The translations under genes and the position numbers were made by a program. From a virus (taxonomy: Duplodnaviria > Caudoviricetes), in the IMG/VR virus record IMGVR_UViG_3300042268_000564: DNA of 64,000 nucleotides. One strand, written 5' to 3'. Shown here piece by piece: positions 4,466 to 30,601 of the stretch. Under the pieces are notes generated by a model. That model saw nothing but the letters and a program-made list of their open reading frames with translations. It ran no database searches and was not told the DNA's origin. Position 1 is the first letter of the stretch, and each line of letters opens with the position of its first letter.

Positions 4466-4550
4466 TTGTCAAAAATAAGCAATAAAAGCCCTGATTTTAC
4501 AGGGCTTTTTTCTTTTTAAAGTATTAACCATATTAATATGGAGAAGTTTT

Positions 4551-5720
4551 ATGGTTAAAGGAACTGGCATAAAAGCGACAAAAGTTTCTGACAATAGTAT
4601 CACTCTTGGCAAACAACCAGCAGGGGTTGCGAGACGATATGGTGGCGCAGTGAGAAATGCGCTGGGACGAGCCTCAGTCAAAGGCAGTAAGCTTAATAAA
4701 ACAGCTTTACTTGCAGCTTTAACTGTTAAAGGAAGTAAATTAACGCCGGACAGGGCTAAGAAGCTTGTAGATAAGGTATTTAATGAAGCTGCGCCTCGTA
4801 AAGTGGCGGTAGCGAATCCTTTTAAGAATAAAACAAACCAGATGGCATTCTTTGATTTCTTTAAAAAGAAAGAGTCGTCGGAAGAATCTACTGAACAAAG
4901 ACTGGCGAGAGAAAAGGGACTCCAGCAAGGTGCAAGAAACGAAGTAACAGGACGTGCTGTTGGCGAAGCGAGAGTAAAACGTGACACTTATCTTCAGAAG
5001 CAGAATGAAGCTGGCAAGATAGACAAGAAGTTCCAAGATATGCCAATTTTCCAAAATAAAACGAATCAACTTTCAGGCAAGGCATTAGGCGAGACAACAC
5101 AAATATCTGGCAAGGTTGAGGCTGGAATTTTTGACGTGGCGAGGTCTAATGTTGAAAGGATTGCCAGAGAGAACGGTATGGATAATAAAGTGGCAAGGAA
5201 CATGATTAATACGCTTGCCGACCTTTCGTTGAATCAAGGTATTCAAGACCGTCAAGCATTAGAGGTCGCATTTAAAGAATCTATGCAAGCTTTTGGGAAC
5301 GATGCTAAAGCTATAAGTCGTTCTGCAAAAGAGCTGAACATTTCTAAATCGGATTTGCAAGACGCTGTTAAAAAGGCTCAAGGAATGAGTATTGACAATA
5401 TTCTTGGCAAGACCAATAGTGCATTTCAAGCATCAGTTGAATACTTCCCATCAAAAACATTGGCAGCGACTCATAAAGTGAGTCCGAAAATAATGGATTT
5501 GGTTGGTAATAACTTCCGTGACATGCTTTATAATAAAAATATGAGCAGAAAAGATATGGCTGCTGAATTCGACCGCACAAATAATGCAATGGCTCAAATG
5601 GAACAAGACAAACCAAAAGCATTTGCGAATAAAGCAAAAGAATATGGACTTACACCGAGAGAACTTTCAGACTCAGTAAGAAGATTGCAAAAACTTTCTA
5701 TTGACGATTTGTTACACTAA
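4551..5720 (+). CDS. Shared-leader family protein A (98-aa conserved N-terminus + unique helical cargo)
   Basis: N-terminus strongly similar to ORFs at 8860 and 29849. Confidence 0.8.
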   Translation: MVKGTGIKATKVSDNSITLGKQPAGVARRYGGAVRNALGRASVKGSKLNKTALLAALTVKGSKLTPDRAKKLVDKVFNEAAPRKVAVANPFKNKTNQMAFFDFFKKKESSEESTEQRLAREKGLQQGARNEVTGRAVGEARVKRDTYLQKQNEAGKIDKKFQDMPIFQNKTNQLSGKALGETTQISGKVEAGIFDVARSNVERIARENGMDNKVARNMINTLADLSLNQGIQDRQALEVAFKESMQAFGNDAKAISRSAKELNISKSDLQDAVKKAQGMSIDNILGKTNSAFQASVEYFPSKTLAATHKVSPKIMDLVGNNFRDMLYNKNMSRKDMAAEFDRTNNAMAQMEQDKPKAFANKAKEYGLTPRELSDSVRRLQKLSIDDLLH

Positions 5721-5736
5721 TAGAGGACTCTTTCAA

Positions 5737-5763
5737 GAAGCACTCCTTCGGGGGTGCTTTTTT
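5737..5763 (+). terminator. Intrinsic terminator
   Basis: AAGCACTCC-TTCG-GGGGTGCTT followed by T run. Confidence 0.85.
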
Positions 5764-5810
5764 GTTTGACATTGTTGCCTATTTCGTTATAATAAATGTG
5801 AGGTGAAAAA

Positions 5811-6209
5811 ATGTTTGTTTACAATGATGGTGGCAGGGCAAAGGCTGGTTTCAAAGGTGAGACAAGAGACTGTGTCACAAGGGCTATTGCTATTGCTACT
5901 GGGAAGCCTTATAAAACTGTTTATGATGCCCTTAATAAACTCGCTGGCAAAAGTGTAGCAAGAACTGGTGTTCCACGAAAGATTTATGAGGCTTATTTAC
6001 TAGCTGACGGGTGGCGTTGGGTTCCTACGATGCTTGTGGGCAAAGGTTGCAAGGTTCATTTGTTGGCAGATGAATTGCCAAAGGGCAAGTTGATTGTTCG
6101 GGTTTCTAAGCATATTGTTGCTGTTATTGATGGCGTAATTCATGATACAAGTGACCCAAGTAGAGGTGGCTCACGTTGCGTCTATGGTTATTTCACAAAG
6201 GAGAAGTAA
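5811..6209 (+). CDS. Conserved phage hypothetical protein
   Basis: DCVTRAIAIATG...HIVAVIDG..HDT pattern typical of phage ORFs; own promoter and SD. Confidence 0.6.
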   Translation: MFVYNDGGRAKAGFKGETRDCVTRAIAIATGKPYKTVYDALNKLAGKSVARTGVPRKIYEAYLLADGWRWVPTMLVGKGCKVHLLADELPKGKLIVRVSKHIVAVIDGVIHDTSDPSRGGSRCVYGYFTKEK

Positions 6210-6210
6210 T

Positions 6211-6405
6211 ATGAGTGCAATGAAAGATGCTCAATTAGAGGCTCAGGAAAAACTTTCTGTTGAATGGCGACAAGTTTATATGTTGTTGGATAGAGAGAAA
6301 AAAGCAAAGCGTAAAAATTACGCCGCTTTGAATGATTATATGATTCGATTACGCTCCATTGAAGAACAGGCAAAAGAGATGAATATTGAATTGATTATCA
6401 GGTGA
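6211..6405 (+). CDS. Hypothetical protein
   Basis: SD GGAG before ATG 6211. Confidence 0.55.
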   Translation: MSAMKDAQLEAQEKLSVEWRQVYMLLDREKKAKRKNYAALNDYMIRLRSIEEQAKEMNIELIIR

Positions 6406-6446
6406 GAGTAAAATATAGATAAACCATAATAGGACGGTTTATTTAT

Positions 6447-6869
6447 ATGCCAGAAAGCCTTAAAGACGGGGTTTGGTACCCCGAAATGATTCTTAAAGAC
6501 CTTGTTGACGCAGGTATCTCTGCCAAAACAGTAGGTTACGATATTGTTGATGTTACGGGCAAACGTTTTTTTTATTTTGCCGATGACGAAAAAATCCCAT
6601 TTGCAGTTGTAGCTTGGAAGCAAGATGACTATATGATTCTTGCTTTTGCACAAGAAATGCCGACTAATATAACAAAAGATATCGTAAAAGCTTTCCGTAA
6701 AGTGCTCGGTTATCCACCATTTGTTCAATACGACTCTTTTCAGCGTGGAGAAGCTTTCAAGGTATTTGAGTGGGCTAAGAATGATGAGGACGATAAATTT
6801 ATTACAATCATGACATTGCCTAACATTAAGAATGTGACAAAAGTGAAAGATGAGTATTACAATGCCTAA
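6447..6869 (+). CDS. Hypothetical protein
   Basis: ORF with SD, co-oriented with neighbours. Confidence 0.55.
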   Translation: MPESLKDGVWYPEMILKDLVDAGISAKTVGYDIVDVTGKRFFYFADDEKIPFAVVAWKQDDYMILAFAQEMPTNITKDIVKAFRKVLGYPPFVQYDSFQRGEAFKVFEWAKNDEDDKFITIMTLPNIKNVTKVKDEYYNA

Positions 6870-7323
6870 TCCACGAAAACGACTTGCTGATTTATCAGAA
6901 CAAAAACAAACATTTCTGCCTGAGAAATATGTTCTTTTAATTAAAACACCAAAAAAGGCGTTGGCGGTAGAAGGGCGCAAAGATTTTACAGAACATTCTA
7001 GCAGAGATGCGTCTACTGTTGTTTGGTTTGAGTTATTGTATAAACTCTCGCAATTAAAGGGGTTGGAAACTGTTAATCGAAAGTATAGATTAACTCATTA
7101 CAGTCCATTGCTGGCAGTGCCTGAAGGGTTCAGTGGTATGACAATTACCCATGAGCAAGATGGCACGATAACTTTTGGCGGAAGATTTTTTGCGAATTGT
7201 GCGTATTCGTCGGAGGATACAACATTAGAATTGTTTGCATATTTTGATGAAGCTTTGCAAGTGCCGGATGATGAAGTAAGAACAGTAATGCAGGAATTTT
7301 GCGTAGGGATGCATGATTTGTGA
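6850..7323 (+). CDS. Hypothetical protein
   Basis: Overlapping operon-like ORF. Confidence 0.55.
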   Translation: MSITMPNPRKRLADLSEQKQTFLPEKYVLLIKTPKKALAVEGRKDFTEHSSRDASTVVWFELLYKLSQLKGLETVNRKYRLTHYSPLLAVPEGFSGMTITHEQDGTITFGGRFFANCAYSSEDTTLELFAYFDEALQVPDDEVRTVMQEFCVGMHDL

Positions 7324-7919
7324 GGCAAAAGATGGATAATGTAGGTTTAATTTTGTGGGATGGGACAACTTCTGTAGAGAATATGACTTCACAGCACAGT
7401 ATGATGCGTGGAGCTGGCATAAATAGAATTTGTGTGGTTGGATGTGGTCAAACAGCTCGTCCAAATTCTTTGATAACATTGTATGAGAATAAGCCTATTG
7501 GGTCTTACGCAGCTCTTGTTCGAGGGGTTAATTATTGTGAGATGTCAATGTTTAATGGTTCTACAGTGAACCAAGAAGGTGTGTTTATTCATTATGCAGA
7601 TGAGCCATTAACATTGAATATTATTAATAAGATTATGCAAATATCTACTATTTGCAGCAATGGAAGCGCAGATATTGTAATGGCTCTTAGACTGGTGGAT
7701 GATAGCTCGAAGCCTAAATATGCTATAGGGCATGATGGAACAATTCAAGGGGTTCAAGAACGTTCAAGAGGGCATGAAAATTTCGGAACTCTATTTATAA
7801 AACGTGGCTTTTTAAAAGGAATGCCAACAGGCTTTACAAAAATACATGAATTTATAGATTGGGCTGTAAAGAACGATACAGCTAAGATTTACGGTGCAAT
7901 AATTAGTTGTAGTAAATAG
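7320..7919 (+). CDS. Hypothetical protein, possibly a degenerate sugar-nucleotidyltransferase-like fold
   Basis: VGLILWDG / AGINRICVV / FIHYAD spacing loosely recalls NTP_transferase; weak. Confidence 0.35.
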   Translation: MRQKMDNVGLILWDGTTSVENMTSQHSMMRGAGINRICVVGCGQTARPNSLITLYENKPIGSYAALVRGVNYCEMSMFNGSTVNQEGVFIHYADEPLTLNIINKIMQISTICSNGSADIVMALRLVDDSSKPKYAIGHDGTIQGVQERSRGHENFGTLFIKRGFLKGMPTGFTKIHEFIDWAVKNDTAKIYGAIISCSK

Positions 7920-8043
7920 CTGTTTTAAATAGATTGTAAGCCGTGCCCCCTGCTTTTTTCGCATTAGCAGGGGTTTTTTCTTGCTTTTTATAAAGTATTT
8001 ATTAGCGGCAGAGCTGGCAACGGGGACTAAAGGAGATTTTTTG

Positions 8044-8769
8044 ATGGATAATTCTAAGTTCAAGCAGGTGTCGAACGACGGCAGCGGCGTGTTGACGGTA
8101 TCTGTCGACAACGCATTAGTGTGTAGCGATATTCATGTGCCCGGTCATAGTGAATATCATATTAAAAAGATGATTAAATATGGTTTGGAACATGGCATTA
8201 AACATCTTTTTATTGCTGGCGATTTTTGGAATCATGATGCAATTTCACGATGGGAGCTTAAAGATAGAAATCTTGGGCTTGCCGATGAATTAAAAGCAGG
8301 AAAAGAGCTTTTGCACAGATTAACAAAATATTTTTATGTTTATCTGGTGTGTGGGAATCATGATGCAAGGATGCCAAGGATTTTGAAGTATGCTGTAAGT
8401 TATTCTGATTGGGTTGCGACAATCCATGCAAAGAAACTTGTAGTTACTGACTTTGATTATATGTTTCTTGAATCTGATGGTGAAATTTTCCGAATATGTC
8501 ATCCAGACATGTATAGCTTGGTAAAAAACAAAAGTGCCTCTACATTGGCACAAGACCTTCAGCAACACGTTATTATGGGGCACCAACATTACCTATCCAT
8601 AGCTACAAACAAAACGGGCAAGTATATGGCAATTGATGCAGGCTGCATGTGTGATATTAACGCCTTTGTTTACAAGAAAGCATCAACCACAAGATGCCCC
8701 GAATGGGAGAATGGTTTTTTCCATATTAAGAATGGGAAAGTAAAGATGATTTGTGATTACACCTTTTGA
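8044..8769 (+). CDS. Calcineurin-like metallophosphoesterase
   Basis: SDIH, AGDFWN, GNHD, GHQH motifs; SD AGGAG. Confidence 0.85.
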   Translation: MDNSKFKQVSNDGSGVLTVSVDNALVCSDIHVPGHSEYHIKKMIKYGLEHGIKHLFIAGDFWNHDAISRWELKDRNLGLADELKAGKELLHRLTKYFYVYLVCGNHDARMPRILKYAVSYSDWVATIHAKKLVVTDFDYMFLESDGEIFRICHPDMYSLVKNKSASTLAQDLQQHVIMGHQHYLSIATNKTGKYMAIDAGCMCDINAFVYKKASTTRCPEWENGFFHIKNGKVKMICDYTF

Positions 8770-8859
8770 CAAGGTGAGAGGTTTTCATATTTGCCCTGCG
8801 GTTGCAGGGCTTTTTTTATTGTAAAATATTGATAAAAGATTATTGCAGGAGTATTCGAT

Positions 8860-9831
8860 ATGGTCAAAGGTATTGGCATAAAAGCAACAAAGGTTTCAGA
8901 TAATAGTTTAACACTTGGCAAACAGCCAGCGGGTGTTGCCAAGCGTTACGGCAATTCTGTTAAAGCTGCGCTTGATAAGGCTTCAGCCAAGGGCAGCAAG
9001 CTTAATAAAACAGCTTTACTTGCAGCTTTGACCGTCAAAGGTAGCAAGCTTACGGCAGATAAAGCCAAGAAAATTGTTGATAAAGTTTTCGCTGATGCAA
9101 AGTCTAATAAGATAACAGTGGCGAATCCGAAGAAAAATAGAACTCTTGTGGACATGGCGACGCTTTATAACTTGCCTTCTGGCAACCCTACTGACGGCAT
9201 GACAAAGCAACAGATTGCTGATAGAGCTGCCAGAATCAGAGCTAATGCTGAAGCAATGTTGGGCAATAAAAGCAACCCTATGACGGGGGCGAAGGAATTA
9301 CCCGCCGACCTTAAAGCTCAATTCGCCAAGATGGATGCTGACCGTGCAACTTTAAGAAAAGCTACTGATGCTGAGATTGGATATATCGTTGCTCAGGGTA
9401 AAAAAGAAAATGGCAATGTTCCTGCGACTGGCACATTAGAAAAACGTGCGAATCTTAGAGTAGATGTTGACAGGCAGACGGATGAATTAAAGGCTGTAAC
9501 GCCTACCGATAAACAAGTAATGTCTAAGGGTTTTGAGCTTGCGGATGGGCAGCTTGGGAAAATGGGCACTCTTTCTAAGAATGTTCTTAATGGGGCAATA
9601 GAGATTGGGCAAATGTCGAAAGATACGTTTGAAGCTTTGAAGGCTGCTGCGCCTTATAATAGGTCTACCAATAAGCCTGCTGGCGAAAAATTCTATTTAA
9701 CCTCTGTTGGTGAAGGTGACAAAAATGAGGTTGTGCTTACACCTGCAAATACTAGAGGCAGGGTTCCAATAGAAAAGAATAGGATAGATATTGTAAAAGA
9801 TGCCAAGACAGGGAAATATGATTTGCTGTAA
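8860..9831 (+). CDS. Shared-leader family protein B
   Basis: Same ~99-aa N-terminus as 4551 and 29849; unrelated C-terminus. Confidence 0.8.
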   Translation: MVKGIGIKATKVSDNSLTLGKQPAGVAKRYGNSVKAALDKASAKGSKLNKTALLAALTVKGSKLTADKAKKIVDKVFADAKSNKITVANPKKNRTLVDMATLYNLPSGNPTDGMTKQQIADRAARIRANAEAMLGNKSNPMTGAKELPADLKAQFAKMDADRATLRKATDAEIGYIVAQGKKENGNVPATGTLEKRANLRVDVDRQTDELKAVTPTDKQVMSKGFELADGQLGKMGTLSKNVLNGAIEIGQMSKDTFEALKAAAPYNRSTNKPAGEKFYLTSVGEGDKNEVVLTPANTRGRVPIEKNRIDIVKDAKTGKYDLL

Positions 9832-9963
9832 AATCCTTTAAATAAAAGGGCTTGCTGGTATCAATCGGCAAGCCTTTTTATTTTTTGAACAGATATTAAA
9901 AAAGTTACTTATATATGTTGACAATTTTATGAGAGTTAATATAATAAGTTGAAGGTGAATTAA

Positions 9964-11406
9964 ATGATTATAAACATTAACCAGACTGAGCAAAAAATCT
10001 TTGACACCGTGCTCGCAGTAGCAAGTGTGCACGGCATCGTTCTTCGTGTGGCTGGTGGCTGGGTAAGAGATAAAATGCTCGGTAAAGACAGTCACGACAT
10101 CGACATTGCCGTAGATGGTGTAATCAGTGGTAAGCCAGTGACTGGCGCAGTATTTGCTGCTTTGGTTGCTGATGCTACAGGCAAAACATTTGCTGTGATT
10201 GATGCTAATCCAGAACAATCTAAGCACCTTGAAACAGCAACTATTGATATTCATGGTGTTTCTGTAGATTTTGTCCACCTCCGCAGTGAAACATATGGCG
10301 ATAGCCGTATTCCAACTGTGGAAGTTGGCACCCCTCAAACTGATGCAGAACGCAGAGACCTCACAATCAATTCTCTTTTCTTTAATATCAATACAGGAGA
10401 AATTGAAGATTTCACTGGCAAGGGTATTGATGATTTGAGAGCTGGCATAATCCGCACACCTCGTGAAAGTAAGAAAACTTTGCTGGACGACCCTTTGAGA
10501 GCTTTGCGTGCAATTCGTTTTGCGGCAAAATTTGGCTTTGAACTTGATGCAAGTCTTGTAGAGGCTATGCAGGATGCTGACGTTCATCATGCTTTTAACA
10601 ATAAAGTTAAAGTTGAAAGAATGATTAAGGAACTCGACAGTATAATGCAGTTTGCCCCTGTAAGAGGGGTAAAATTGATTATTGAATCAGGCTTGCTTGA
10701 CAATCATATTCCTGAACTTAAAGATATGGATTTTGACCAGCAAACAAAATATCACGATAAAACAGTGCTTGACCATACTCTTGCACTTACTGAAGAGCTG
10801 CATCAGCAGTTTCCTGATGATATTGACCTTAAGTGGGCTGCAATCCTTCATGATATTGGCAAGCCAAGTTCAGCTACCCCTCACAAGGACGGCGTAAGTC
10901 TTACCTTTGTAAATCATGAATTGGTGAGTGCCGACATTGCGGAGCGTGCTCTTACTAATCTTCGTTTCAGCAATGAAAGAGTGAGACGTATCAGACGGCT
11001 TGTTAAAAGGCATATGATTAACTTCAACCCGAAATGGTCTGACTTTAAGTTCAAGAAATGGCTCAGGGAGCACTTCGAATCAGCCGATGAGGTAATGAGC
11101 CTTGTAGCTTTGCGAGGTGCTGACATTAATGCATTGAATCCAGAACACAATGTAGAGCCAAAAAGAAACCATGACGCTCTTGTTGATAGAATCAGCAGGG
11201 TTGATGTGGCTGAAGCGATTGGCATGAAGTCTTTCGTAAATGGACACGAACTTCAGAAAATCTTTAATCGTAAGCAAGGTGAATGGATTAGAGAAGTTCA
11301 GGGCAAGATGATTGATTTGCAGCTTCAAGGTATGGTTAATAACCAACAGGAAGCTCTTGCTCGTGCTCAGAAATGGGCTGATAGGGAATTGGAACAATCT
11401 AGTTGA
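9964..11406 (+). CDS. cca: CCA-adding enzyme / tRNA nucleotidyltransferase with HD domain
   Basis: AGGWVRD..DIDI, DAERRDLTIN, DDPLRALRAIRF, HDIGK. Confidence 0.92.
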   Translation: MIININQTEQKIFDTVLAVASVHGIVLRVAGGWVRDKMLGKDSHDIDIAVDGVISGKPVTGAVFAALVADATGKTFAVIDANPEQSKHLETATIDIHGVSVDFVHLRSETYGDSRIPTVEVGTPQTDAERRDLTINSLFFNINTGEIEDFTGKGIDDLRAGIIRTPRESKKTLLDDPLRALRAIRFAAKFGFELDASLVEAMQDADVHHAFNNKVKVERMIKELDSIMQFAPVRGVKLIIESGLLDNHIPELKDMDFDQQTKYHDKTVLDHTLALTEELHQQFPDDIDLKWAAILHDIGKPSSATPHKDGVSLTFVNHELVSADIAERALTNLRFSNERVRRIRRLVKRHMINFNPKWSDFKFKKWLREHFESADEVMSLVALRGADINALNPEHNVEPKRNHDALVDRISRVDVAEAIGMKSFVNGHELQKIFNRKQGEWIREVQGKMIDLQLQGMVNNQQEALARAQKWADRELEQSS

Positions 11407-11471
11407 CAATTAAGTTCTCGGCTATATAATGAGTGTAAGTAATGACACTCTATTTTTTTGAGGAGAAACAG

Positions 11472-11825: not shown

Positions 11826-11827
11826 GT

Positions 11828-12253: not shown

Positions 12254-12273
12254 TGTTGTTGGATTTAAGATAG

Positions 12274-12302: not shown

Positions 12303-12315
12303 ATTGCATAGTCTA

Positions 12316-13344: not shown

Positions 13345-13905
13345 ATGGGACAACAGAAGCGTATGTTCAACTTGAATAGGGGGCTTATTGCGGCTAATCA
13401 GGATGGGCAGGAAATAATTATTCGCACTAAGATTCTGAAGGATTCGCTGCAATTTTCTTTTGCGGGTGACACTGTTACAGCAAGGATAGAGAAAAAAGAA
13501 TGTTTGGCGGAATTTGAAAGAGTTAAGGATAATATGTTTGAAAAAAGAAGTTTTGAAGGAATGAAACACGCTTTAAGGCACCTTCTTAAAAATAAGTCTT
13601 TAAAGTTTGATGCAGGAATTTTAAGTGTTGGTGAGTATACTTTTTCGTTTGTTGTTGTCCAGAACGGTTTTCTTGCTCATTATGAGATTATGCCCGATAA
13701 TATTGTTTCATTTGGCGTGATTCATCAAGATGACGCCATTATGCTTGCCAAGCAACAGGGTGAATGGAATGTTAAGAAACAAGAGCAGGAGATTATTGCA
13801 CATTGCAAAGATTATTATGACGCTCTGGATAAAATAATAAAAGAGATAGAGCAAATTTTTGCAAATACAGTTAAAGACTTATCCGAAAAAAGGCAGTTGC
13901 ACTAA
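13345..13905 (+). CDS. Hypothetical protein
   Basis: Follows TAAAGTATT motif; coupled to next gene. Confidence 0.6.
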   Translation: MGQQKRMFNLNRGLIAANQDGQEIIIRTKILKDSLQFSFAGDTVTARIEKKECLAEFERVKDNMFEKRSFEGMKHALRHLLKNKSLKFDAGILSVGEYTFSFVVVQNGFLAHYEIMPDNIVSFGVIHQDDAIMLAKQQGEWNVKKQEQEIIAHCKDYYDALDKIIKEIEQIFANTVKDLSEKRQLH

Positions 13906-15275
13906 TGAGTACAAGCGGTGGTTCAAAACGACAAGGAGCAGGTGGCGGCTCAGGCAAACATAATGTTGAAAACAGAGAGCCAATTGCGCCCAGAGATGAA
14001 TGGACAAGAATCGGCAAAGAAGGTGGCGGTGGTTCAATCGCAGTTGCTTCAGCGATGGGCAACGAAGACCCTCTTTCTCAGCTCAAAAATTCAAAATATA
14101 AAAACAAAAAATTAGATAGCTTAAAAGATATAATTATCGCAAGAGATGCAAATGGTAAGCTCTTGATGTCCAACGAAGAATTTAATAAACAAGTAGCCAA
14201 GCTTGCTGTAAATAAACTCAAGAAAGCCAGAGAGATAGGGTTAATGCAGGGCGGGGTTATGCGACTCCCCAAAACAGGGAAAGCGATAGTTGTAGGCGAC
14301 TTGCATGAACAAGCAACAAATCTTACGGCGATTCTTAAACATGCGAATTTAGATAAGAACCCAAAAACAAAATTGATTTTGTTGGGTGATGTTTTGTCCG
14401 GGTCAAAAGTTGCCCGTTCTGACGAAACTGGTGGCGGCGATTCGATGCACAGAGTTATTTCATGGCTACAGGCTCGTTACCCTGACCAAGTTTTTGTTGT
14501 CAATGGGAATCATGAGATGGGCATGATGGCTGGCGTGGACAAGATGGAAGGTGGCAGCAAGGCTGCAAGTGCAATGGGACGTATGGAAGCTAGATTGTTC
14601 ACAGATAAAGAACAGGCTATAGAAAGAATAAAAGAATCACCGTTGCAGATTCAGATTGGTGATAAAGCCAAGGGGGAATATACAAGAACATTTCAACATG
14701 CCCCAGGTGCTGGCGACATTACAGAAGTTGCGAAATTGAATACCCCCGAAGATAGAAACGCAAAAGCTACGAACATATTTGAGAGCGGTGAAACTTTAAC
14801 AAAGGAAGCTTTGCAGAAGGTTAATGAAGGGAATAAGTCGGATTTAACATATTTTGGACACGTCTCGCCTGAAGCCGTCGAAAAGGGTTTACATAGTGGC
14901 GACTTGAAGCCTGAGATAAGCAAGGGTGTTGTTTCTAAGTTTGCTGGCGGCGGGATGTTTGTTGATTCGCAAAATCAGGACACAAGTGGTATTGTTGAGA
15001 TAGACCTTAATAAAGATTCAGCTCCTGAAAAGATTATTTCCATGAAGGATTTAAGGAACGAATATCAGAAATCTGCTGGCCATCTTGAAGGTTTAAGAGA
15101 ATTTGGTGGCAGCGATAAAGATACATTCAGAGGGCAGATTGCAATTAAAAATGCGGCTGAAAGAGCGGCAAAAGAAGCTGGTGAAAGGGCAAAGAAAGAA
15201 AAACCATTGACACCTGAAGAACAGGCAAAGTTGCTTGCAGACTTGATGGGCAGTGTTAAGGGTGCTGATTGGTAA
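13905..15275 (+). CDS. Metallophosphoesterase (PPP-like) with Gly-rich N-terminal extension
   Basis: VGDLHE, LGDVL, NGNHE, FGH motifs. Confidence 0.8.
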   Translation: MSTSGGSKRQGAGGGSGKHNVENREPIAPRDEWTRIGKEGGGGSIAVASAMGNEDPLSQLKNSKYKNKKLDSLKDIIIARDANGKLLMSNEEFNKQVAKLAVNKLKKAREIGLMQGGVMRLPKTGKAIVVGDLHEQATNLTAILKHANLDKNPKTKLILLGDVLSGSKVARSDETGGGDSMHRVISWLQARYPDQVFVVNGNHEMGMMAGVDKMEGGSKAASAMGRMEARLFTDKEQAIERIKESPLQIQIGDKAKGEYTRTFQHAPGAGDITEVAKLNTPEDRNAKATNIFESGETLTKEALQKVNEGNKSDLTYFGHVSPEAVEKGLHSGDLKPEISKGVVSKFAGGGMFVDSQNQDTSGIVEIDLNKDSAPEKIISMKDLRNEYQKSAGHLEGLREFGGSDKDTFRGQIAIKNAAERAAKEAGERAKKEKPLTPEEQAKLLADLMGSVKGADW

Positions 15276-18303: not shown

Positions 18304-18999
18304 ATGACAATTATTCCAATGGTTACAGATGTCACCAGACGCACGAACGACATTTACTCTCGCCTTTTGCAAGACCGTGTTATCTTTTTGGCTGATGAGA
18401 TTACAGATGAGACGGCGAATCTTGTTGTTGCGCAATTGTTATTTCTTGCGGCAGAAGACCCGAACAAAGAAATTTCGCTTTACATAATGAGTCCGGGTGG
18501 CATGGTTACGGCAGGCATGGCAATTTATGACACGATACAGCATATTAAGCCAGATGTTTCTACCTGTTGTATCGGTGCAGCCGCCAGTATGGGTGCATTT
18601 TTGTTGGCAGCAGGAACAAAGGGTAAGAGATATGCCCTCCCTAATGTTGAAATCATGATTCATCAGGTTCTCGGTGGTGCTATGGGGCAAGAGTCTGACA
18701 TTCAGATTACAGCGCAGCAGATGGCAAAAACAAAGGCTCGTATCAACCAAATTTTGGCTAAACATACTGGACAGCCTTTGGACAAGGTGACGGCAGATTG
18801 TGATAGGGATTATTATTTGACAGCAGAAGAAGCTGTGGAATACGGTTTGATTGACAAGATTCTTTATCCTCGTGAAAAAAGTAATACAAAAAAAACAAAA
18901 ATGACTGAGGTTGAAGATAAGAATGGTAAGAAAAAGCTTTCTCAGGAGTCTCTTGAAAAGAAATATGGAAAATTTAAACCAGCAGGAAAGAAAAAGTAA
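18304..18999 (+). CDS. clpP: ClpP protease proteolytic subunit with basic C-terminal tail
   Basis: DIYSRLL.DRVIFL, SPGG, AASMG (Ser), IMIHQ (His), DRDY (Asp). Confidence 0.95.
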
Positions 19000-21849: not shown

Positions 21850-21855
21850 TTGATT

Positions 21856-21880: not shown

Positions 21881-21893
21881 AAGGGGATATAGC

Positions 21894-23159: not shown

Positions 23160-23236
23160 TTTTTTTATTTTTTCACTTGACACTTTTTTGTTTTTCATTA
23201 TAATAAAAGTATAGATAAAAAACAAAGGAGCCGAGT

Positions 23237-23572
23237 ATGTATAATCAGGAAAACGCAACCGAAACCCTCAGACAGCTTACCATGAGCAATAATCCTGTTG
23301 GAACACTTACAATGTTCTTGGGTGCTTATCATATCGCTTTCAGTAGTAAAGAATACAATGTAAGCTTCAAATTCAAAGCGAGAGCAAAGAATAGCGTTAA
23401 TTACTGCAAAATCACGTTGACTGCAATGGACGACTACACAATGGAGCTTGGCAGAATCAGAGACAAGCAGGGTGTTCCTACATACAAAAAGGTCGAAGAA
23501 ATCGACGGACTCTACTGGGAAGACCTGAAAGGTGCATTCGAAAGACATACTGGTTTGTATCTCAGCCTGTAA
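23237..23572 (+). CDS. Conserved phage hypothetical protein
   Basis: Own promoter/SD; C-terminal FE.HTGLY.SL. Confidence 0.65.
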   Translation: MYNQENATETLRQLTMSNNPVGTLTMFLGAYHIAFSSKEYNVSFKFKARAKNSVNYCKITLTAMDDYTMELGRIRDKQGVPTYKKVEEIDGLYWEDLKGAFERHTGLYLSL

Positions 23573-23582
23573 GAGGAAAGTT

Positions 23583-23822: not shown

Positions 23823-23897
23823 AAATGTAATTGCATAAAATCGCACCTGCGATTATAATAGCTCGTGGGTGTGATTTTTATTTTATTGGAGGTCGGG

Positions 23898-24269: not shown

Positions 24270-24469
24270 CAAAGGGACAGAAACAAGAAGAGTTGATGAC
24301 AGACATGAAAAATGCACTTGATATTTTGTGGGTGCTGGCGATATCGCTTGAGCACAATACAAAAAGAGAGAACTTTCTGGCACAAAGGGACGCAAAAGAT
24401 GGACAAAAACTCTGCAAAGAATTGCTCAAAAAATACGAAACCGAGTTTGGCAGACTCGGGGTTGGTTAA
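24266..24469 (+). CDS. Hypothetical protein
   Basis: ATGA overlap, SD AGGAGG. Confidence 0.55.
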   Translation: MTKGQKQEELMTDMKNALDILWVLAISLEHNTKRENFLAQRDAKDGQKLCKELLKKYETEFGRLGVG

Positions 24470-24540
24470 TTTTTTTAAAATCGCTTGACATTTTTTTGTA
24501 TTTTATTATAATAAAAGTATAAAGACAAAGGAGCCGAGCG

Positions 24541-24786
24541 ATGAACGAAGCGAAGGAAATCAGAGTCGAGCTTAAAAATAAATTGGGTTATAATTCACGG
24601 CAGGTATCAGTAAGGACTGATGGCTGTGCTATAAGGGTAAATGTTAAAGATAAAAGCATAGACCTTAAGCCTATTAAGGAAATTGCACGGAAATACGAAG
24701 ATATAAGTCGTTGCGAGTATACTCACGAGATTCTTTCTGGTGGCAACACTTTTGTATTTGTTAACTACTCGTGGGATGCTAAATAA
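24541..24786 (+). CDS. Phage hypothetical protein
   Basis: Own promoter/SD. Confidence 0.65.
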   Translation: MNEAKEIRVELKNKLGYNSRQVSVRTDGCAIRVNVKDKSIDLKPIKEIARKYEDISRCEYTHEILSGGNTFVFVNYSWDAK

Positions 24787-24804
24787 GGGATAAGGAGTTT
24801 AACA

Positions 24805-25077
24805 ATGTTAGAGCCGAAATTTGAAGTATTTGAAACTACCGAAGACCTTGTGAACCTTGACAAGCCCTATCGCCATATTATGGTTGAGGGTGTTAAATAT
24901 CGTGCCTCGTCAAATTCCTGCAAAGGTGTTACATTGTTCTACAATGAAGAGACGGGTAAAGCTTACTTCAGATATGAACTTATGGTGCATGACGGAGAAA
25001 ATCTCAGGCTGTGGAACGAAAAAAATCTTCCAAGAGAAATGGAAATTGCAATCGACTTTCAGTTTAAGGTGGTGTGA
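24805..25077 (+). CDS. Hypothetical protein
   Basis: SD AAGGAG. Confidence 0.6.
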   Translation: MLEPKFEVFETTEDLVNLDKPYRHIMVEGVKYRASSNSCKGVTLFYNEETGKAYFRYELMVHDGENLRLWNEKNLPREMEIAIDFQFKVV

Positions 25078-25499
25078 AAATGCGCTTTCATAATTGGAAA
25101 GACATATTCATTGGCACTATTATTGTGTCGTTATTTGTTACCGTTGTGGCAGGTGTTGTTTATGTTTGCATGAATACTGGCACTTACAGAGAGCTTGGCA
25201 GTATTTATGTTGTTGATAAAGAATATGTGAGAGCTTACACGGAAACCAGAACAGAGACTAAATCTTATACTGAGAATGGGAAGACCAAAACGAGACTTGT
25301 AACCCGCAAAATTTATCACCCTGCCGAATACAATGTAACATTCAGGGACGTCAAATATCAGTATCGTTGCGTTGTGAATGACAGTCGTTTTTATGACAAA
25401 GTAAGAACTGACTGCAAATATGACGGTTGTGTTGTATACCGCACTTGGAAAAAAGAAATTGCAGGATTGTGGGGTTTTGAATTTATTGAAAGGAACTGA
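25074..25499 (+). CDS. Membrane-anchored hypothetical protein
   Basis: N-terminal TM, beta-rich domain. Confidence 0.6.
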   Translation: MKMRFHNWKDIFIGTIIVSLFVTVVAGVVYVCMNTGTYRELGSIYVVDKEYVRAYTETRTETKSYTENGKTKTRLVTRKIYHPAEYNVTFRDVKYQYRCVVNDSRFYDKVRTDCKYDGCVVYRTWKKEIAGLWGFEFIERN

Positions 25500-25501
25500 T
25501 T

Positions 25502-26011
25502 ATGTGGAACTTCGTAAATGTGTCGATGGTGACTCGTAGTGGATTAAAGATAAACTACAACTATCGTTTAAAGATAAGTTCAGACCTTGAGTTGGTTAAT
25601 CTTTTTTTTAATACACCATTTGGTCGAGAAAATTATGCAGGTGGTTTTATTGCTCATAAATTAGAAAAGGTTCGTCCCGGCAAGTTATGCGAATGGACTG
25701 GGTCACGCTGTTTGTTCGACATGCAAGCAAGACTCGAAGAATTTAGGGTCATGGACGCAAAAGCAACCTTTGCCGCAGAAAGCCCTTTCGCTACACCAGA
25801 CCAACTCGAACTCTTGAAAAAAGACGCTCGTAAGCGTACGGCTTTGGAAATTGATACAAGTATTACTATCACCGTGTTTAAACAAATGAGTGAAGCCATA
25901 AAAAAGTATGGAGCGATTTATTTGGCTGAAGAAGGTGCCTATTTCCCCCATTCTGAGGATATAATAATTCATAAGCAGAAAAAATCTAAGGAACTAAAAT
26001 GGGACTTTTAA
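25502..26011 (+). CDS. Hypothetical protein
   Basis: Operon-like ORF. Confidence 0.55.
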   Translation: MWNFVNVSMVTRSGLKINYNYRLKISSDLELVNLFFNTPFGRENYAGGFIAHKLEKVRPGKLCEWTGSRCLFDMQARLEEFRVMDAKATFAAESPFATPDQLELLKKDARKRTALEIDTSITITVFKQMSEAIKKYGAIYLAEEGAYFPHSEDIIIHKQKKSKELKWDF

Positions 26012-26581
26012 ATGCAGCTCTATACTTGGCAAGCTATTGATTTTAACCTTGTTTCTGACAAGTCTGACTTAAACTTGTCGCCCTGTTACATGGATGAACA
26101 TAAAGAATTCCGAGAAACATTCCAAAAAGCTTATGATTATCTTTTTGACAGGATTGGCAGACGAGACAATATTTGGTGCTATGGTGCACCAATAATTAAC
26201 GCCAACAAAAATAATAAATTACAATCGTTTAAAAATGAGCGGCTTTGGGTATTAGATGTGCCCGACAAACATATTATTGCCATTGATTCTGATATTTGGG
26301 ACTTTGCTCTGAACAATTGGTATTATCTCAAAGACGAAGTCTACGATGCTCTTTATGGGCATGTTGATGAAAAAGATGAAGATAGGATTGATGAGGCACT
26401 TGCCAGTATTTATGATAAAGACCCTAGAAAATCCTACAAGGATTTGATAAAGCCACTGAAGAAGGCTAACCAATTTCACGACCAGTTTTTAATTCCTTCT
26501 CCCATTAAGAAGAGTTGGGTGGTAAGGACTTTTGTTGTTAATGCAGAGGAGCGAATTTGTGGCGGCAAAAAAAGAAAATAA
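26012..26581 (+). CDS. Hypothetical protein, DUF3841-like
   Basis: LYTWQ...AYDYL...IWC...LDVPD...WD..LN.W...I.KSWV pattern. Confidence 0.5.
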   Translation: MQLYTWQAIDFNLVSDKSDLNLSPCYMDEHKEFRETFQKAYDYLFDRIGRRDNIWCYGAPIINANKNNKLQSFKNERLWVLDVPDKHIIAIDSDIWDFALNNWYYLKDEVYDALYGHVDEKDEDRIDEALASIYDKDPRKSYKDLIKPLKKANQFHDQFLIPSPIKKSWVVRTFVVNAEERICGGKKRK

Positions 26582-26915
26582 GGACATTAGGGCTGATTTC
26601 ATCACTAACATCATGAAAGACTGGAAAGACCTTGACGACGCTTTCATGACTCGAAGGCTAGACAAGACAGAGAAAGAAAAACTCTATGATTATATCGGCA
26701 AACATTTTACAGAGGCGATAAATAAGCTTGATGAATTTGAGCAACTTTTTTATGTTGCGATTGGTTATTACGCCGTAGTAACTAATAATCCGAAAGTGAT
26801 GTTGGATACAGCACGTTATATTATGAATAATAAAGATTTGAATGATGAGCTTCGGCAATTAGCGGCAAAGAAATACAGCGAATGGCTGAAAGCCTCTTAC
26901 ATCAAAGTACAATAG
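26532..26915 (+). CDS. Hypothetical protein
   Basis: Co-oriented ORF; exact start uncertain. Confidence 0.5.
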   Translation: MLLMQRSEFVAAKKENKDIRADFITNIMKDWKDLDDAFMTRRLDKTEKEKLYDYIGKHFTEAINKLDEFEQLFYVAIGYYAVVTNNPKVMLDTARYIMNNKDLNDELRQLAAKKYSEWLKASYIKVQ

Positions 26916-26941
26916 ATATAAATCAAGGCAAGGGAAACAGA

Positions 26942-27265
26942 ATGGATTTAATTAATTGCGAACATTGTAGTAGAGCATTTCGACCACATACATCATTGCA
27001 AAGATATTGTCCTGATAAGTTGTGTCAAAGAGCAAGAAAAACAAATGCCGCACATTTAAGAGCGCAGCGGGTTGATTTGCCAGAAGAAAAGTCTGACAAT
27101 GCCGGATTCATAAAGTTAAAAGCTGAGAATGAACAATTAAAGACAGAGAATGAGCAGCTTAAAAAGGGACTGGCAGATTATAAAGGCAGGTTCGAGCTTT
27201 GCTATAGCAAGTTTGTTATGGTGCATGGTGCTTATAAATATGCTGTTGAGGTAGGCAATGTATGA
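26942..27265 (+). CDS. Zn-finger/coiled-coil hypothetical protein
   Basis: CEHC...YC...C then coiled coil. Confidence 0.55.
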   Translation: MDLINCEHCSRAFRPHTSLQRYCPDKLCQRARKTNAAHLRAQRVDLPEEKSDNAGFIKLKAENEQLKTENEQLKKGLADYKGRFELCYSKFVMVHGAYKYAVEVGNV

Positions 27266-27597
27266 ATGTGTTAAAAGATTGGACTATTGAAGAGCATGGG
27301 AAAGGTTGGGCACTTTATTCAGGCAGAGGCATACCTTGTTTTAGCGACATTCCCGGAGTTGGCATTGCCTGTGGTTCTCACGGAATGAATCTTGTTTATT
27401 TGACTGAGCCAGATAGAAATTTCCCAGAAGTAAAAAAATTGATTGAAGGTGCGCCAGAATTGTTGCAAGCACTTTATGCGACTCATCGTTCATTGCTGGA
27501 AAATCCAGATTATTTAAAAAGCAAACAAGGACAAGACAATGCCAAGCTATTAGCAGGTTTGTCTGATTGTCTTGCGAAACAAGGAGTAAAACCATGA
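27262..27597 (+). CDS. Hypothetical protein
   Basis: LIEGAPELLQAL phage motif. Confidence 0.55.
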   Translation: MNVLKDWTIEEHGKGWALYSGRGIPCFSDIPGVGIACGSHGMNLVYLTEPDRNFPEVKKLIEGAPELLQALYATHRSLLENPDYLKSKQGQDNAKLLAGLSDCLAKQGVKP

Positions 27598-27842
27598 TTT
27601 TTACTGTAAGATTTGAACATCCACAAGTAGGTAACAAAGGGTCAGCAGTTTATTTGAATGTGGATGCTACAGATATGGCAGATGCAATTAAAAAGGCCAG
27701 AGCCGATAAAAGATTTGCAGAAGCTGTTGAAGAATATAACCACCCAGATTCCCCCATAACAGATTCGTTATTTATTGCTTATGCTTCGCCTACTCGTAAA
27801 GCTGGTGAGTTTATGCATTTTGATGGTGACCCTCGACTATGA
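27594..27842 (+). CDS. Hypothetical protein
   Basis: ATGA overlap, SD AAGGAG. Confidence 0.55.
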   Translation: MIFTVRFEHPQVGNKGSAVYLNVDATDMADAIKKARADKRFAEAVEEYNHPDSPITDSLFIAYASPTRKAGEFMHFDGDPRL

Positions 27843-28129
27843 CTTTGATGGCACTGTTTTTTTTATTGTTCATCGTTTATTGCGTGAGAGAAATTGTTCT
27901 CTCTCGGCGTTCTTATAAGTTTTGGGTGGACATTAGAAAAGAGATGGTCGAGAAATACGAAGAATATTACAATGATGTTACTGTTATAGATGCAGCATTC
28001 TCCACGTCAAATGATTCTGACGAGAAAAAGGTTCTTGCTGGCAAAAGAATGGCTAGGATGGATGAATATGATGAATACCTTAGAGGTGTGGACAAACGTA
28101 TGCAAGAAAAGTTGAGCGGCAAAAGATGA
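27839..28129 (+). CDS. Membrane-anchored hypothetical protein
   Basis: N-terminal TM; ATGA overlap. Confidence 0.55.
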   Translation: MTLMALFFLLFIVYCVREIVLSRRSYKFWVDIRKEMVEKYEEYYNDVTVIDAAFSTSNDSDEKKVLAGKRMARMDEYDEYLRGVDKRMQEKLSGKR

Positions 28130-28299
28130 AAAAAGTTGTAATTGAAAATCTGATGTTGGAAAAAACAAATGATGATTATTTCAGCATTAACACCCATGAC
28201 AGAAAGGGTAATTCAATTAAGATTGAAATCACTGCGAAGACAGCTCTTGAAATCGCAAGAGTGTTTCTTAATTGGGTGTGTGCAGCGTGGTTAGAATAA
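28126..28299 (+). CDS. Small hypothetical protein (57 aa, not in ORF track)
   Basis: ATGA overlap; fills the gap. Confidence 0.5.
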   Translation: MKKVVIENLMLEKTNDDYFSINTHDRKGNSIKIEITAKTALEIARVFLNWVCAAWLE

Positions 28300-28303
28300 G
28301 AGC

Positions 28304-28495
28304 ATGACATGCAATAAATGTGGTAGCACACTGACTGCGCCGACTAGAAACGGCTTGCTCACAGAAATGATGTGTCATAAACATCTGCAAGGTGACAAGT
28401 CTCACACAGCTTTTCAGGTTTTTGACCCTGAAGGCAAAATATTTGACACATTCTGTCCAAGAATGGAATTTTTCGTAGTAGAACGCAAGGAGTGA
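28304..28495 (+). CDS. Small Cys-containing protein
   Basis: CNKC...C..H...C. Confidence 0.5.
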   Translation: MTCNKCGSTLTAPTRNGLLTEMMCHKHLQGDKSHTAFQVFDPEGKIFDTFCPRMEFFVVERKE

Positions 28496-28499
28496 TGAG

Positions 28500-29519
28500 A
28501 TGAAAGTTTATAAGACGCCTGCGGGTGAACATGGATTGATTTTGCAGGAGGGGACAGATGATTTTCGTTTGTTTCAGAATTTTCTGGCAACAACGGGTAA
28601 GAATTTGCCTGATACCAGATTAAAGATGCTATTTGAAAAGATGCAGTCTGCTTATCAGAATGCCGAAAATAAGACCGACGCTCCAGCAACGCCAGCAAAT
28701 GTTGTGAGTCAGGGGTATTCAACTCAAACAAATCAGAAGCTTGATGTTATAAGTCAGAAGATTGATTCGGTGATTCGTGCTATCGGTGGCATTGGGAATA
28801 TTAATCCTGCTGCTGCGAAAATTGACTTGTCAGCTCTTGAAGGTGCGATTGCTCGCATGGAAAAAACTATTGGCAATCAACTTGTTGTAAAGATGGAAGC
28901 CCTAACCGAGGGTGTAAGTTTTAACAATCTTTGTGTCGACATTAAAGATATCGTAAAGAAAGAGGTTGCTGAAATAAAATCAACCGTTCAGCAATTATCT
29001 GCATATCACAAACAGATTGACGCAATTAATAATATTGATATTGGTTCGACTCAGTTGCTGCCATCTGCTACGCAAGTGGAATCTATTGTGACTCAGGCTG
29101 CTGCTGATGAATATAAGGCGACAAAAAGGGCAATTGAAGAAGCCAGAACTGAACATGCAAGTGTTGATGAGATAAAAAAGGAAGATGAGGATAAAACCCT
29201 TCCTCGACTTAACCCCGGCGAATCTGTTGATAAAGTAACAATGGAAGATTTTACTAATCCTGCCGAAGATGAAGCAGTTGTACAGGAAGATATTATTCGC
29301 TATCCTGCCAGAAAGAAAAAGAATACTAGACCAAAGTGTTATGGGAATTTTGATTCTACTGATGAATCCCCTTGCAGGTCTTGCGCTTGGGTGAATGATT
29401 GTTCGCTGAATGAGCCAGTTAAGGAAACAAATAAGCCGGGATGTTATGGGCAGTATAAAGCTGATTTGAGGTGTGGTAGCTGTCCTGAAAGTAATGGCTG
29501 CATGAACGACTCGATGTGA
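28500..29519 (+). CDS. Coiled-coil protein with two C-terminal Cys4 motifs
   Basis: PKCYG..CRSC...C and PGCYG..CGSC...C. Confidence 0.65.
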   Translation: MKVYKTPAGEHGLILQEGTDDFRLFQNFLATTGKNLPDTRLKMLFEKMQSAYQNAENKTDAPATPANVVSQGYSTQTNQKLDVISQKIDSVIRAIGGIGNINPAAAKIDLSALEGAIARMEKTIGNQLVVKMEALTEGVSFNNLCVDIKDIVKKEVAEIKSTVQQLSAYHKQIDAINNIDIGSTQLLPSATQVESIVTQAAADEYKATKRAIEEARTEHASVDEIKKEDEDKTLPRLNPGESVDKVTMEDFTNPAEDEAVVQEDIIRYPARKKKNTRPKCYGNFDSTDESPCRSCAWVNDCSLNEPVKETNKPGCYGQYKADLRCGSCPESNGCMNDSM

Positions 29520-29526
29520 GGTGCTT

Positions 29527-29763
29527 ATGACTACAAAAATCATATTTAATGACAATGTAGATGTTGTAGTTATCAGGAAAGCAATGGGGCTTGGTGTAGA
29601 CTCATTTGCAGCTATTATGGGTGTTTCAAAGCGTATGGTTGATGATTGGGAAAAAGGCAGAAAGTCGCCAAAGGGAGCAGCTAAGAATCTTTTGATTGTT
29701 GCCAGAGAAAATCCTGATATGGTGAAAGAAGTATTGTTAAATACAGTAAAAATTGAACGGTAA
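29527..29763 (+). CDS. XRE-family HTH protein
   Basis: IRKAMGL...FAAIMGVS..MV..WE.GR..P.GAA..LL. Confidence 0.85.
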   Translation: MTTKIIFNDNVDVVVIRKAMGLGVDSFAAIMGVSKRMVDDWEKGRKSPKGAAKNLLIVARENPDMVKEVLLNTVKIER

Positions 29764-29848
29764 TTATTGATATAATTAAAAGCCCTGCGATTGCGGGGCT
29801 TTTTTTATTGTAAAGTATTGACTAAAGAATGTTACAGGAGTGTTCAGT

Positions 29849-30601
29849 ATGGTCAAAGGTGACATAAAAGCTACGAAGGTTTCTGATAATAGTATCACTC
29901 TTGGCAAGCAACCAGCGGGTGTAGCCAAGAGATATGGTGCGCCAGTTAAAGCTGCGCTTGATAAAGCCGCAGCTAAGGGCAGCAAGCTTAATAAAACAGC
30001 ACTTATGGCTCTTTTGACTACAAGGGGTAGTAAACTTACTCCTGAGAAGGCGGCTAAAATTGTATTGCAAGTGTTTAAAAATGCAAAACCTACTATAAAG
30101 ATTAATACTTCCGCTATTTTTAAGAACAAAACTAATCAAATGAGCGTGAATGAGATTATTGGAAATAATAGTAAGGTTCAACAGAAAGAATATGACCAAA
30201 AGTTGATGATGGGTAAATATGTGGATAGTCTTTCTAGGAATGAACAACGACGCATGTTACAGGTTTTGCATGATGGTTTTAACGGTGACAAACTTGATAT
30301 GGCAGGACTTTCTAAGAATATTAATGAGACAGCAACGATTCTTAAAGGTTTATATAAAAATAGTGGCTTAGACCCTTTGCAATATCAGGGAGCTGTGCAA
30401 GTTGACTTGTTTAAAGCATTGGGCGGGAGATTTGAGGGGAAAAAAGCAGTAATGCCGGGGAAGCTAGTAACGTCATCATCTGAGTCACCTTTTAAAAATG
30501 TTAATATGACATCTTATAAGACAGACCCATTTAAGGCTTTTGCAGAACGCATGGCATCTTTAGCGACAAAAACTGCTGTTAAAAAAAACAGAAATGACTG
30601 A
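29849..30601 (+). CDS. Shared-leader family protein C
   Basis: Same N-terminus as 4551 and 8860; SD AGGAG. Confidence 0.8.
   Translation: MVKGDIKATKVSDNSITLGKQPAGVAKRYGAPVKAALDKAAAKGSKLNKTALMALLTTRGSKLTPEKAAKIVLQVFKNAKPTIKINTSAIFKNKTNQMSVNEIIGNNSKVQQKEYDQKLMMGKYVDSLSRNEQRRMLQVLHDGFNGDKLDMAGLSKNINETATILKGLYKNSGLDPLQYQGAVQVDLFKALGGRFEGKKAVMPGKLVTSSSESPFKNVNMTSYKTDPFKAFAERMASLATKTAVKKNRND

Follow-up and report, generated by a model that had tools for sequence, protein, structure and literature searches.

The stretch analysed here, referred to as the window, comprises 64,000 nucleotides of phage DNA (bases 287068-351067 of a 393,839-bp IMG/VR record; 39.6% G+C) and contains three genes, P0001, P0002 and P0003, whose products share a basic N-terminal leader domain and carry different C-terminal cargos. 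Each gene lies behind a small cassette (A, B and C, respectively) with a terminator-like hairpin and a promoter-like element. The genes and cassettes are as follows, with protein lengths in amino acids (aa).

4551-5720 (+), P0001, 389 aa; leader domain at 4551-4805
8860-9831 (+), P0002, 323 aa; leader at 8860-9114, cargo ending in YDLL
29849-30601 (+), P0003, 250 aa; leader at 29849-30100, cargo of 152 aa
4488-4505 (+), terminator-like hairpin of cassette A, GCCCTG-loop-CAGGGC with a T-run
4517-4525 (+), promoter-like element of cassette A, TAAAGTATT, 34 nt before the ATG
8793-8810 (+), terminator-like hairpin of cassette B
8822-8830 (+), promoter-like element of cassette B, TAAAATATT
29782-29799 (+), terminator-like hairpin of cassette C
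29811-29819 (+), promoter-like element of cassette C, TAAAGTATT

As an earlier note on this DNA had proposed, the open reading frames (ORFs) beginning at 4551, 8860 and 29849 have a basic N terminus in common, with 73-77% amino-acid identity over residues 1 to ~98, and their C-terminal parts have no similarity detectable by BLASTP (E 0.16-4.5). Pfam and PHROG scans of P0001-3 gave no match above threshold. The homology also reaches upstream, again as proposed, over the hairpin (consensus GCCCTG..C(A/G)GGGC plus a T-run), the promoter-like element (consensus TAAA(G/A)TATT in the three cassettes) and the ribosome-binding site (RBS): the 70 bp upstream are 63-80% identical in pairwise comparisons, and leader codons 1-240 show a pairwise DNA identity of 70-74%. 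Further upstream and downstream of this unit, DNA identity is 42-53%, at the background level of randomly drawn pairs of 240-bp window segments, which average 47% and reach at most 52.5%. Between its three copies in the window, the leader has a ratio of nonsynonymous to synonymous divergence (dN/dS) of 0.07-0.20 and a dS of 1.2-2.2. Because synonymous sites are saturated and dN/dS is low, the copies appear to be old, with the protein under purifying selection, rather than the outcome of recent duplication, and the dS values rule out recent gene conversion among them. Moreover, the noncoding 70 bp are conserved beyond what synonymous sites would lead one to expect and are thus probably under selection too.

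The earlier note placed the end of the similarity at a Met. The end is indeed abrupt, but the boundary is a conserved motif of ~10 residues that closes in Met, Ile, Phe or Leu and recurs inside P0001 and P0002, and the junction codons, given there by positions 4844, 9156 and 30142, lie at 4842-4844, 9157-9159 and 30140-30142. The motifs of the three window proteins are located as follows.

4809-4844, P0001 junction motif VANPFKNKTNQM, then a helical spacer
5037-5075, P0001 second motif DMPIFQNKTNQLS, then the cargo with two repeats of ~90 aa
9118-9159, P0002 degenerate junction motif VANPKKNRTLVDMA, then a spacer module beginning LVDMATLYNLPS
9250-9285, P0002 second motif EAMLGNKSNPMT
30107-30142, P0003 junction motif TSAIFKNKTNQM

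Aligning 26 instances gave N-P-[LF]-K-[ND]-K-[ST]-[SN]-[KQ]-[MIFL], the most conserved linear element of the whole leader family; versions in this genome include VANPFKNKTNQM, TSAIFKNKTNQM, VANPLKSKANPI and SAVFGNKSNPY. The motif closes every leader and recurs within proteins, with 1-4 copies per protein in the scan (2 in P0001, 2 in P0002, 3 in P0012 and 4 in P0024), and P0013 has four clear copies together with a fifth, degenerate one that ends its leader. P0012 and P0024 have a module in common, placed last in the former and second in the latter (57% identity, E 7e-33), and the P0002 spacer beginning LVDMATLYNLPS is found again in P0012 and in another polyprotein, on contig L014; judged by their sequences, the pieces between motifs appear to behave as independently shuffled modules. 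A sortase-B-like reading of NP.K / NKTN was dropped, as a C-terminal membrane anchor is absent, and so was the junction Met as an internal translation start, as it is not preceded by a visible Shine-Dalgarno sequence. A weak motif match in the N terminus of a tubulin was treated as chance. The proteins end in ...SIDDLLH (P0001, 5703-5720) and ...KYDLL (P0002, 9817-9831), and an internal repeat of P0001 ends in SIDNIL immediately before the degenerate motif GKTNS.

The AlphaFold2 model of P0002, built on a 17-sequence alignment, reveals a beta-hairpin followed by four helices at residues 5-82, with a per-residue model confidence (pLDDT) of 87-95, and a further helix at residues 116-138. The pLDDT of the motif region in between (residues 85-108) is below 50, so that it looks like an exposed, disordered linker. 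The leader itself, of ~85 residues, has a net charge of +14 and a pI >10. Structure neighbours of the leader model in the Atlas had template-modelling (TM) scores of ~0.5 over short stretches, including PqqD-like and DnaB-N-like ones, and were uninformative.

The high charge over 85 residues and the helical core of the model would suit a histone-like DNA-binding domain that coats or condenses the phage DNA, with the cargo riding on the genome (T4 internal proteins bind DNA), and such a role can coexist with packaging or could be confined to the cell. The pattern LNKTAL..LT..A.K.VD.VF also has what we take to be a superficial likeness to the first two helices of HU. However, no Pfam match to Bac_DNA_binding (PF00216) was obtained, and a hidden Markov model (HMM) of 17 leaders retrieved no HU/IHF chain from the PDB even at E <=10. 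Nor was a fold match found: Foldseek of the leader model against the PDB gave nothing below E 3.7 (E >3 throughout), and the wide VIA search reached a best Z of 3.8, with unrelated chains. HU-like homology was dropped for want of Pfam or PDB-HMM support, the model being a hairpin with four helices. Moreover, folded proteins cannot pass the portal with the DNA during packaging, so that loading into the prohead would still be needed, and we consider a genome-coating leader improbable.

Profile searches of the full genome and of related phages, a check that the earlier note had proposed, brought up more leader proteins, both in the genome and in other samples. The genome encodes six: P0001-3 (type A), P0005 and P0019 (a longer type B) and the diverged P0020 (196 aa, genome 75753-76343; E 1.8e-17 against the 17-sequence profile). 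P0005 is a divergent fourth member of 427 aa (genome 283058-284341), and in P0021 (447 aa, genome 263403-264743) just the junction motif is present, close to the N terminus. The gene of P0019 starts 450 bp before the window and encodes a type-B leader, the junction motif SAVFGNKSNPY and a cargo with HEMGH...AEEIGVE, an HExxH/gluzincin-like signature.

1-1895 (+), 3' part of the P0019 gene, 781 aa; genome 286617-288959

Searched exhaustively with an HMM, 1.84 billion representative proteins yielded 14 matches, 11 of which are relatives from other samples; the other three are two spurious repeat proteins (P0014 and P0016) and P0004, which is P0001 with another start. In all 12 real matches the leader begins at residue 1, and total lengths are 206-700 aa. 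The relatives' contigs that were traced belong to JGI samples 3300076254/55/87, to a metagenome of an anaerobic digester and to Logan runs, and so far the family is known only from a few uncultured phages of digesters or wastewater. No relative was found among INPHARED phage records (megablast and tblastn) or among IMG/VR and JGI metagenome contigs, and a word-index search of proteins gave back the query and P0004 and nothing else. With no match of the leader in Pfam, PHROG, the PDB or a cultured phage, the leader domain and its joint motif are, by sequence, undescribed conserved elements.

The type-A leader genes of the window are insulated units, each composed of a terminator, TAAAGTATT and the gene, and are wedged between early-type units that encode a primase, a phosphoesterase and a CCA enzyme. 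The genome holds 93 perfect sigma-70-type promoters (TTGACA-N16-TATAAT), compared with at most 1 in shuffled sequences. Only 1 of them falls in the virion block at 160-280 kb, which contains TerL, an HK97-type major capsid protein (MCP), two sheath genes, a tape-measure-sized gene and the baseplate. Ten are found in 32 kb of the window.

3713, 5766, 9918, 11403, 15283, 17296, 20043, 22684, 23177 and 24485 (+), perfect TTGACA-N16-TATAAT promoters

The raw count of TAAAGTATT is not enriched in the genome, and ~20 of its sites are positioned 25-60 nt before an RBS and ATG. Such sites precede tail and tail-fibre-type genes (phrog_7440, 8745 and 31460), occur inside the virion block and head the operon that ends in P0020. 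Another TAAAGTATT site is followed by two small membrane proteins directly upstream of P0005 (genome 282078-282964; L004:506-1392), one with an N-terminal transmembrane segment and a Lys/Glu-rich tail and the other hydrophobic at both ends.

The three window cargos are basic, helical and of low complexity, with no Pfam domain. In the relatives, recognizable proteins stand behind the same leader. P0022, from a related phage, has the leader, the motif INPLKNKGAKM and then a complete CCA-adding tRNA nucleotidyltransferase (PolyA_pol at 124-261, followed by HD); the cargos of P0010 and P0013 are BspA-type leucine-rich repeats (LRRs; LRR_5); and that of P0023 gave a weak HD-like match below the Pfam cut-off. 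In P0019, P0018 and P0008, HExxH is followed by AEExxVE, and P0021 has HExxH only. The HExxH cargo matched no Pfam peptidase family, and a PDB-HMM search gave no relevant match. An AlphaFold2 model of its domain, built with four sequences, averaged a pLDDT of 53, too low for use, so that, with a fold that could not be modelled, the domain is a candidate protease, gluzincin-like in its signature. A related phage carries two tandem paralogues of the P0019-type cargo (L015:2-1564 and 1573-3675), and residues 163-669 of the P0019 cargo are 31% identical to the truncated upstream one.

Two of these modules also occur as free-standing genes in the window.

9964-11406 (+), leaderless CCA-adding tRNA nucleotidyltransferase; perfect TTGACA-N16-TATAAT promoter at 9918-9945
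23237-23572 (+), stand-alone 111-aa protein; perfect sigma-70-type promoter at 23177-23204

The window CCA enzyme matches P0022 over residues 100-572 of the latter at 70% identity and starts 2 residues past the P0022 motif. Likewise, the 111-aa protein shares 63% identity with the module that closes P0024 and starts 7 residues past the last motif there, ALGNKSSKM. The fused versions belong to units headed by GTAAAATATCA after a terminator, and this pair of elements stands, almost unchanged in sequence, before five leader genes that lie within 14.5 kb on contig L012 and before P0006 (L028). As the leaderless copies lie behind sigma-70-type promoters and the fused copies behind GTAAAATATCA, the same protein appears either early and alone or joined to a leader in another transcription class. 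Early expression and pre-packaging are the two ways in which a protein can be present at the start of infection. The portability that the earlier note ascribed to the tag is thus borne out: the same leader precedes unrelated cargos in the genome and its relatives, and cargo orthologues exist with and without it.

In the leader tree, a type-B clade (P0005/15/17 and P0018/19/22) stands apart from type A, within which the three window copies cluster (93/97) and so do the five copies of a relative (92/87). The relative on L012 has leader copies that are nearly identical, including the 40 nt upstream. Within type B, P0005/P0015/P0017 and P0018/P0019 are orthologues across phages. Several genes also occupy the same slot in different phages: P0002 and P0010 come right before the CCA gene, P0003 and P0006 (on a digester phage contig) adjoin a divergent helicase/clamp-loader block, and P0019 and P0018 lie just upstream of the primase. 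The same slot and leader type with a different cargo fits replacement at the level of the cassette or episodic homogenization; it also fits the leaders of one phage tracking a single partner.

Clustering of type-A leaders by genome is what lineage-specific duplication would produce, and the three window cargos, all basic, helical, of low complexity and without Pfam domains, could have diverged deeply from a common ancestor. The family would then consist of ordinary paralogues of one duplicated gene, with C termini changed past recognition and no modular exchange. This account is very improbable, because unrelated folds follow the same leader in the relatives (PolyA_pol with HD, LRR_5 and HExxH), cargo orthologues occur without a leader, modules recombine between proteins, and positional counterparts carry different cargos (P0002 and P0010; P0003 and P0006). 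The earlier note had named structural homology of the C-terminal regions as what would refute its reading; addressed at the level of sequence, those regions have no detectable similarity, and distinct Pfam domains are found in the relatives.

A basic folded head-piece, an exposed joint before each module and a cargo that starts like a free protein together resemble a load-then-cut system. Our best reading, drawn from sequence and from analogy and given a probability of roughly 45%, is that of a late-expressed virion-loading leader with processing sites. The leader would bring the precursor into the assembling virion, most likely into the acidic interior of the procapsid as with the T4 internal proteins; the motifs would be sites at which a phage protease frees the modules; and the released enzymes and binders would enter the next host with the DNA. 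From the sequences, we judge it slightly more likely than not that the motif is a cleavage site, and put the virion interior as destination a little short of even odds. The 348-aa MCP of the HK97 family (genome 198405-199451; PF05065, 27.2 bits with a cut-off of 24.2) has a net charge of -10, and for the coiled-coil tail encoded by the next gene upstream it is -14; we count this complementarity to the leader (+14) in favour of virion loading. Complex prediction of leader residues 1-110 (17-row alignment) with the MCP and the acidic C-terminal 217 residues of the upstream gene scored 0.00, amounting to no answer, and was not used.

The reading has close parallels among known systems. The internal proteins of T4 (IPI-III and Alt) are diverse, basic and fast-evolving and have only an N-terminal capsid-targeting sequence in common, which takes them to the prohead's scaffolding core before it is removed; injection of the proteins accompanies that of the DNA, and foreign proteins can be given the tag as well (PMC3012670, PMC9026906). 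The T4 tag, however, has ~10 residues and is cut after Glu by the S77 protease gp21 at an (L/I)-x-E site, whereas the leader here is a predicted folded domain of ~85 residues with a 10-residue motif that has no conserved Glu at the junction and recurs between modules; no S77 protease was found. The ejection proteins gp53 and gp54 of SPN3US have propeptides of 111-254 residues with several cleavage sites (PMC10052503, PMC5694885). They resemble the proteins described here in the long N-terminal leader, the several motifs (here 1-5 copies of a putative cleavage site) and the paralogue family, and the SPN3US proteins are abundant and internal to the head. Their paralogues are homologous over the whole length, though, with an (A/S/G)-x-E site and a T4-type protease, while here the cargos are unrelated and the motif differs; in addition, the present phage is not phiKZ-like, having a small HK97-type MCP. 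A tag much longer than that of T4, the contrast drawn in the earlier note, is less new than this suggests in view of the SPN3US propeptides (PMC10052503) and of P1 DarA, which loses an N-terminal ~9 kDa to the prohead protease (PMC12810830).

P1 loads several unrelated antirestriction (Dar) proteins into its head and ejects them together, their basic surfaces contacting DNA (PMC12810830, PMC9024508). They have no common leader, and loading is hierarchical through DarA and Hdf on the capsid wall. MuF- or portal-fused effectors and polyvalent proteins combine a constant head-association module with variable effectors delivered with the DNA (PMC5512222, PMC3482391), and polyvalent proteins carry zincin-type processing peptidases, with HExxH domains proposed to release domains (PMC5512222). 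The family described here is similar in exchanging variable effector domains with stand-alone versions (the CCA enzyme and the 111-aa module) and in its shuffled modules. It differs in that the modules are spread over many small genes with their own promoters instead of forming one giant polypeptide, with a conserved linear motif at every joint; Pfam scans of P0001-3, P0005, P0008, P0010, P0012, P0017-19 and P0021-25 showed no MuF or portal domain, nor any other packaging domain known so far. In encapsulins, short conserved peptides, sometimes repeated in a disordered N terminus, dock unrelated enzymes inside an HK97-fold shell, and the MCP (PF05065) is likewise an HK97-fold shell protein and a possible receptor. 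Encapsulin peptides are uncleaved, and the shells contain no genome and make no delivery to other cells.

Several observations weigh against virion loading and against processing at the motif. The portal-sized protein, the putative protease-scaffold, a 161-aa protein and the MCP all lack the motif, although a prohead protease that used this site might be expected to act on the scaffold at least. Prohead protease PF03420 (S77, gp21-type) had no match at E <=1 in the whole 394-kb record, and PF04586 is absent as well. The 1111-aa gene upstream of the MCP, which by position and composition is the putative protease-scaffold, gave a zinc-ribbon match only, with no protease match and no PDB relative. 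Instead of being cut, the motif could be a docking peptide, with the tandem copies of P0013 fitting multivalent binding. BspA-type LRRs are typical of surface adhesins, and LRR cargos would suit an external location on the virion. The type-B members P0005 and P0019 have no private cassette. In addition, TAAAGTATT also heads two metallophosphoesterases, a dNMP kinase and an endonuclease, none of them structural. Late expression from the cassette, which the earlier note had included, therefore holds in part: the promoter class is unlike that of the neighbours, but the element is not private to the cassette, and "late" is likely rather than proven. The calcineurin-type metallophosphoesterase units lie at 7981-8769 and 13345-15275, associated with TAAAGTATT sites at 7991 and 13304; the class is accordingly not confined to structural or leader genes.

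That the leader genes lie among replication and tRNA genes, outside the head module, and that a phage ClpP and an M16 peptidase could process the family in the cytoplasm, likewise count against virion loading. In one alternative, these are not virion proteins at all: the leader would be an intracellular handling domain, such as an adaptor for ClpP(X), M16 or the HExxH proteins or a chaperone or localization tag, and the motif a cytoplasmic processing or degradation signal. A full-length ClpP (18304-18999, PF00574, 266 bits) is encoded in the window between leader genes, and a 714-aa M16 (insulinase-type) peptidase is encoded 6 kb upstream of P0005 (genome 274446-276590; L017:2447-4591), ~10.5 kb before the window. 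Members of the M16 family are known for removing basic presequences. HExxH proteins within the leader family itself, the Met, Leu, Ile or Phe at the end of the motif and the acid-Leu-Leu tail at the C terminus of P0002 point the same way. However, intracellular handling leaves unexplained why the same enzyme exists as an early leaderless and a late fused version, and what use a late-made CCA enzyme would have in a cell about to lyse. ClpP, moreover, is not site-specific on its own. We regard this alternative as unlikely.

The fibre-type operons bear on another possibility, that the leader is an external anchor which plugs accessory proteins onto the tail, fibre, neck or capsid surface, the motif then being either a flexible hinge or a strand that docks. 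Shared adaptor domains of this kind occur at the N termini of many jumbo-phage fibres. Both P0020 and P0011, which are orthologues, come last in a fibre-type operon, that of P0020 with a tail protein and the phrog_10356 virion protein and that of P0011 with Laminin_G_3 and Big_5; the TAAAGTATT class drives fibre genes, and two cargos are BspA-type LRRs. Yet the CCA-adding enzyme and the weak HD-like cargo have no obvious use outside the particle, and the leader and cargos are strongly basic, like internal proteins. Moreover, stand-alone orthologues behind early-type promoters suggest an intracellular function at the start of infection, and the motif-bounded beads on a string, with tandem units of ~48 residues in P0013, are unlike fibre architecture. 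An external anchor is thus rather improbable. In the Laminin_G_3/Big_5 operon, a ferritin-like gene (L030:7505-7996, L031:2655-3146) lies directly before P0011.

Returning to the virion-loading leader, we infer from these comparisons a virion location, cleavage at the motif and a responsible protease, each in the conditional terms used above. Its fullest form is a small clade of digester jumbo phages with a general protein-delivery system of its own, made up of a loading leader, a 10-residue joint cut by a leader-tagged HExxH protease and an exchange between early and pre-packaged enzymes, including a CCA-adding enzyme for repair of tRNA 3' ends at DNA entry; as a whole, this version is doubtful. 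Load-then-cut delivery by the tags of other phages is known already, and the new elements here are the leader domain and the joint motif. If the leader does load its cargo, it would offer a natural means of tagging any chosen enzyme for packing into a large phage head, with a design rule (leader, motif, then the protein from its own Met) that until now has been offered by the T4 capsid-targeting sequence only. It would also name the activities needed in the first second of infection, namely tRNA CCA repair and possibly an HD-type hydrolase, a metalloprotease and LRR binders, and these would point to host defences that act before phage gene expression. The pattern of early promoter alone versus late leader fusion could guide searches for packaged effectors among phages that have not been cultured. 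Should the packaging idea fail, an undescribed leader domain with its joint motif and a clear two-class promoter architecture stand.

In the virion block, the TerL gene (genome 188061-191024; L006:7062-10025) encodes 987 aa, and its middle part also matches helicase, HNH and endonuclease families, which hints at an insertion, for instance of an intein or a homing endonuclease.

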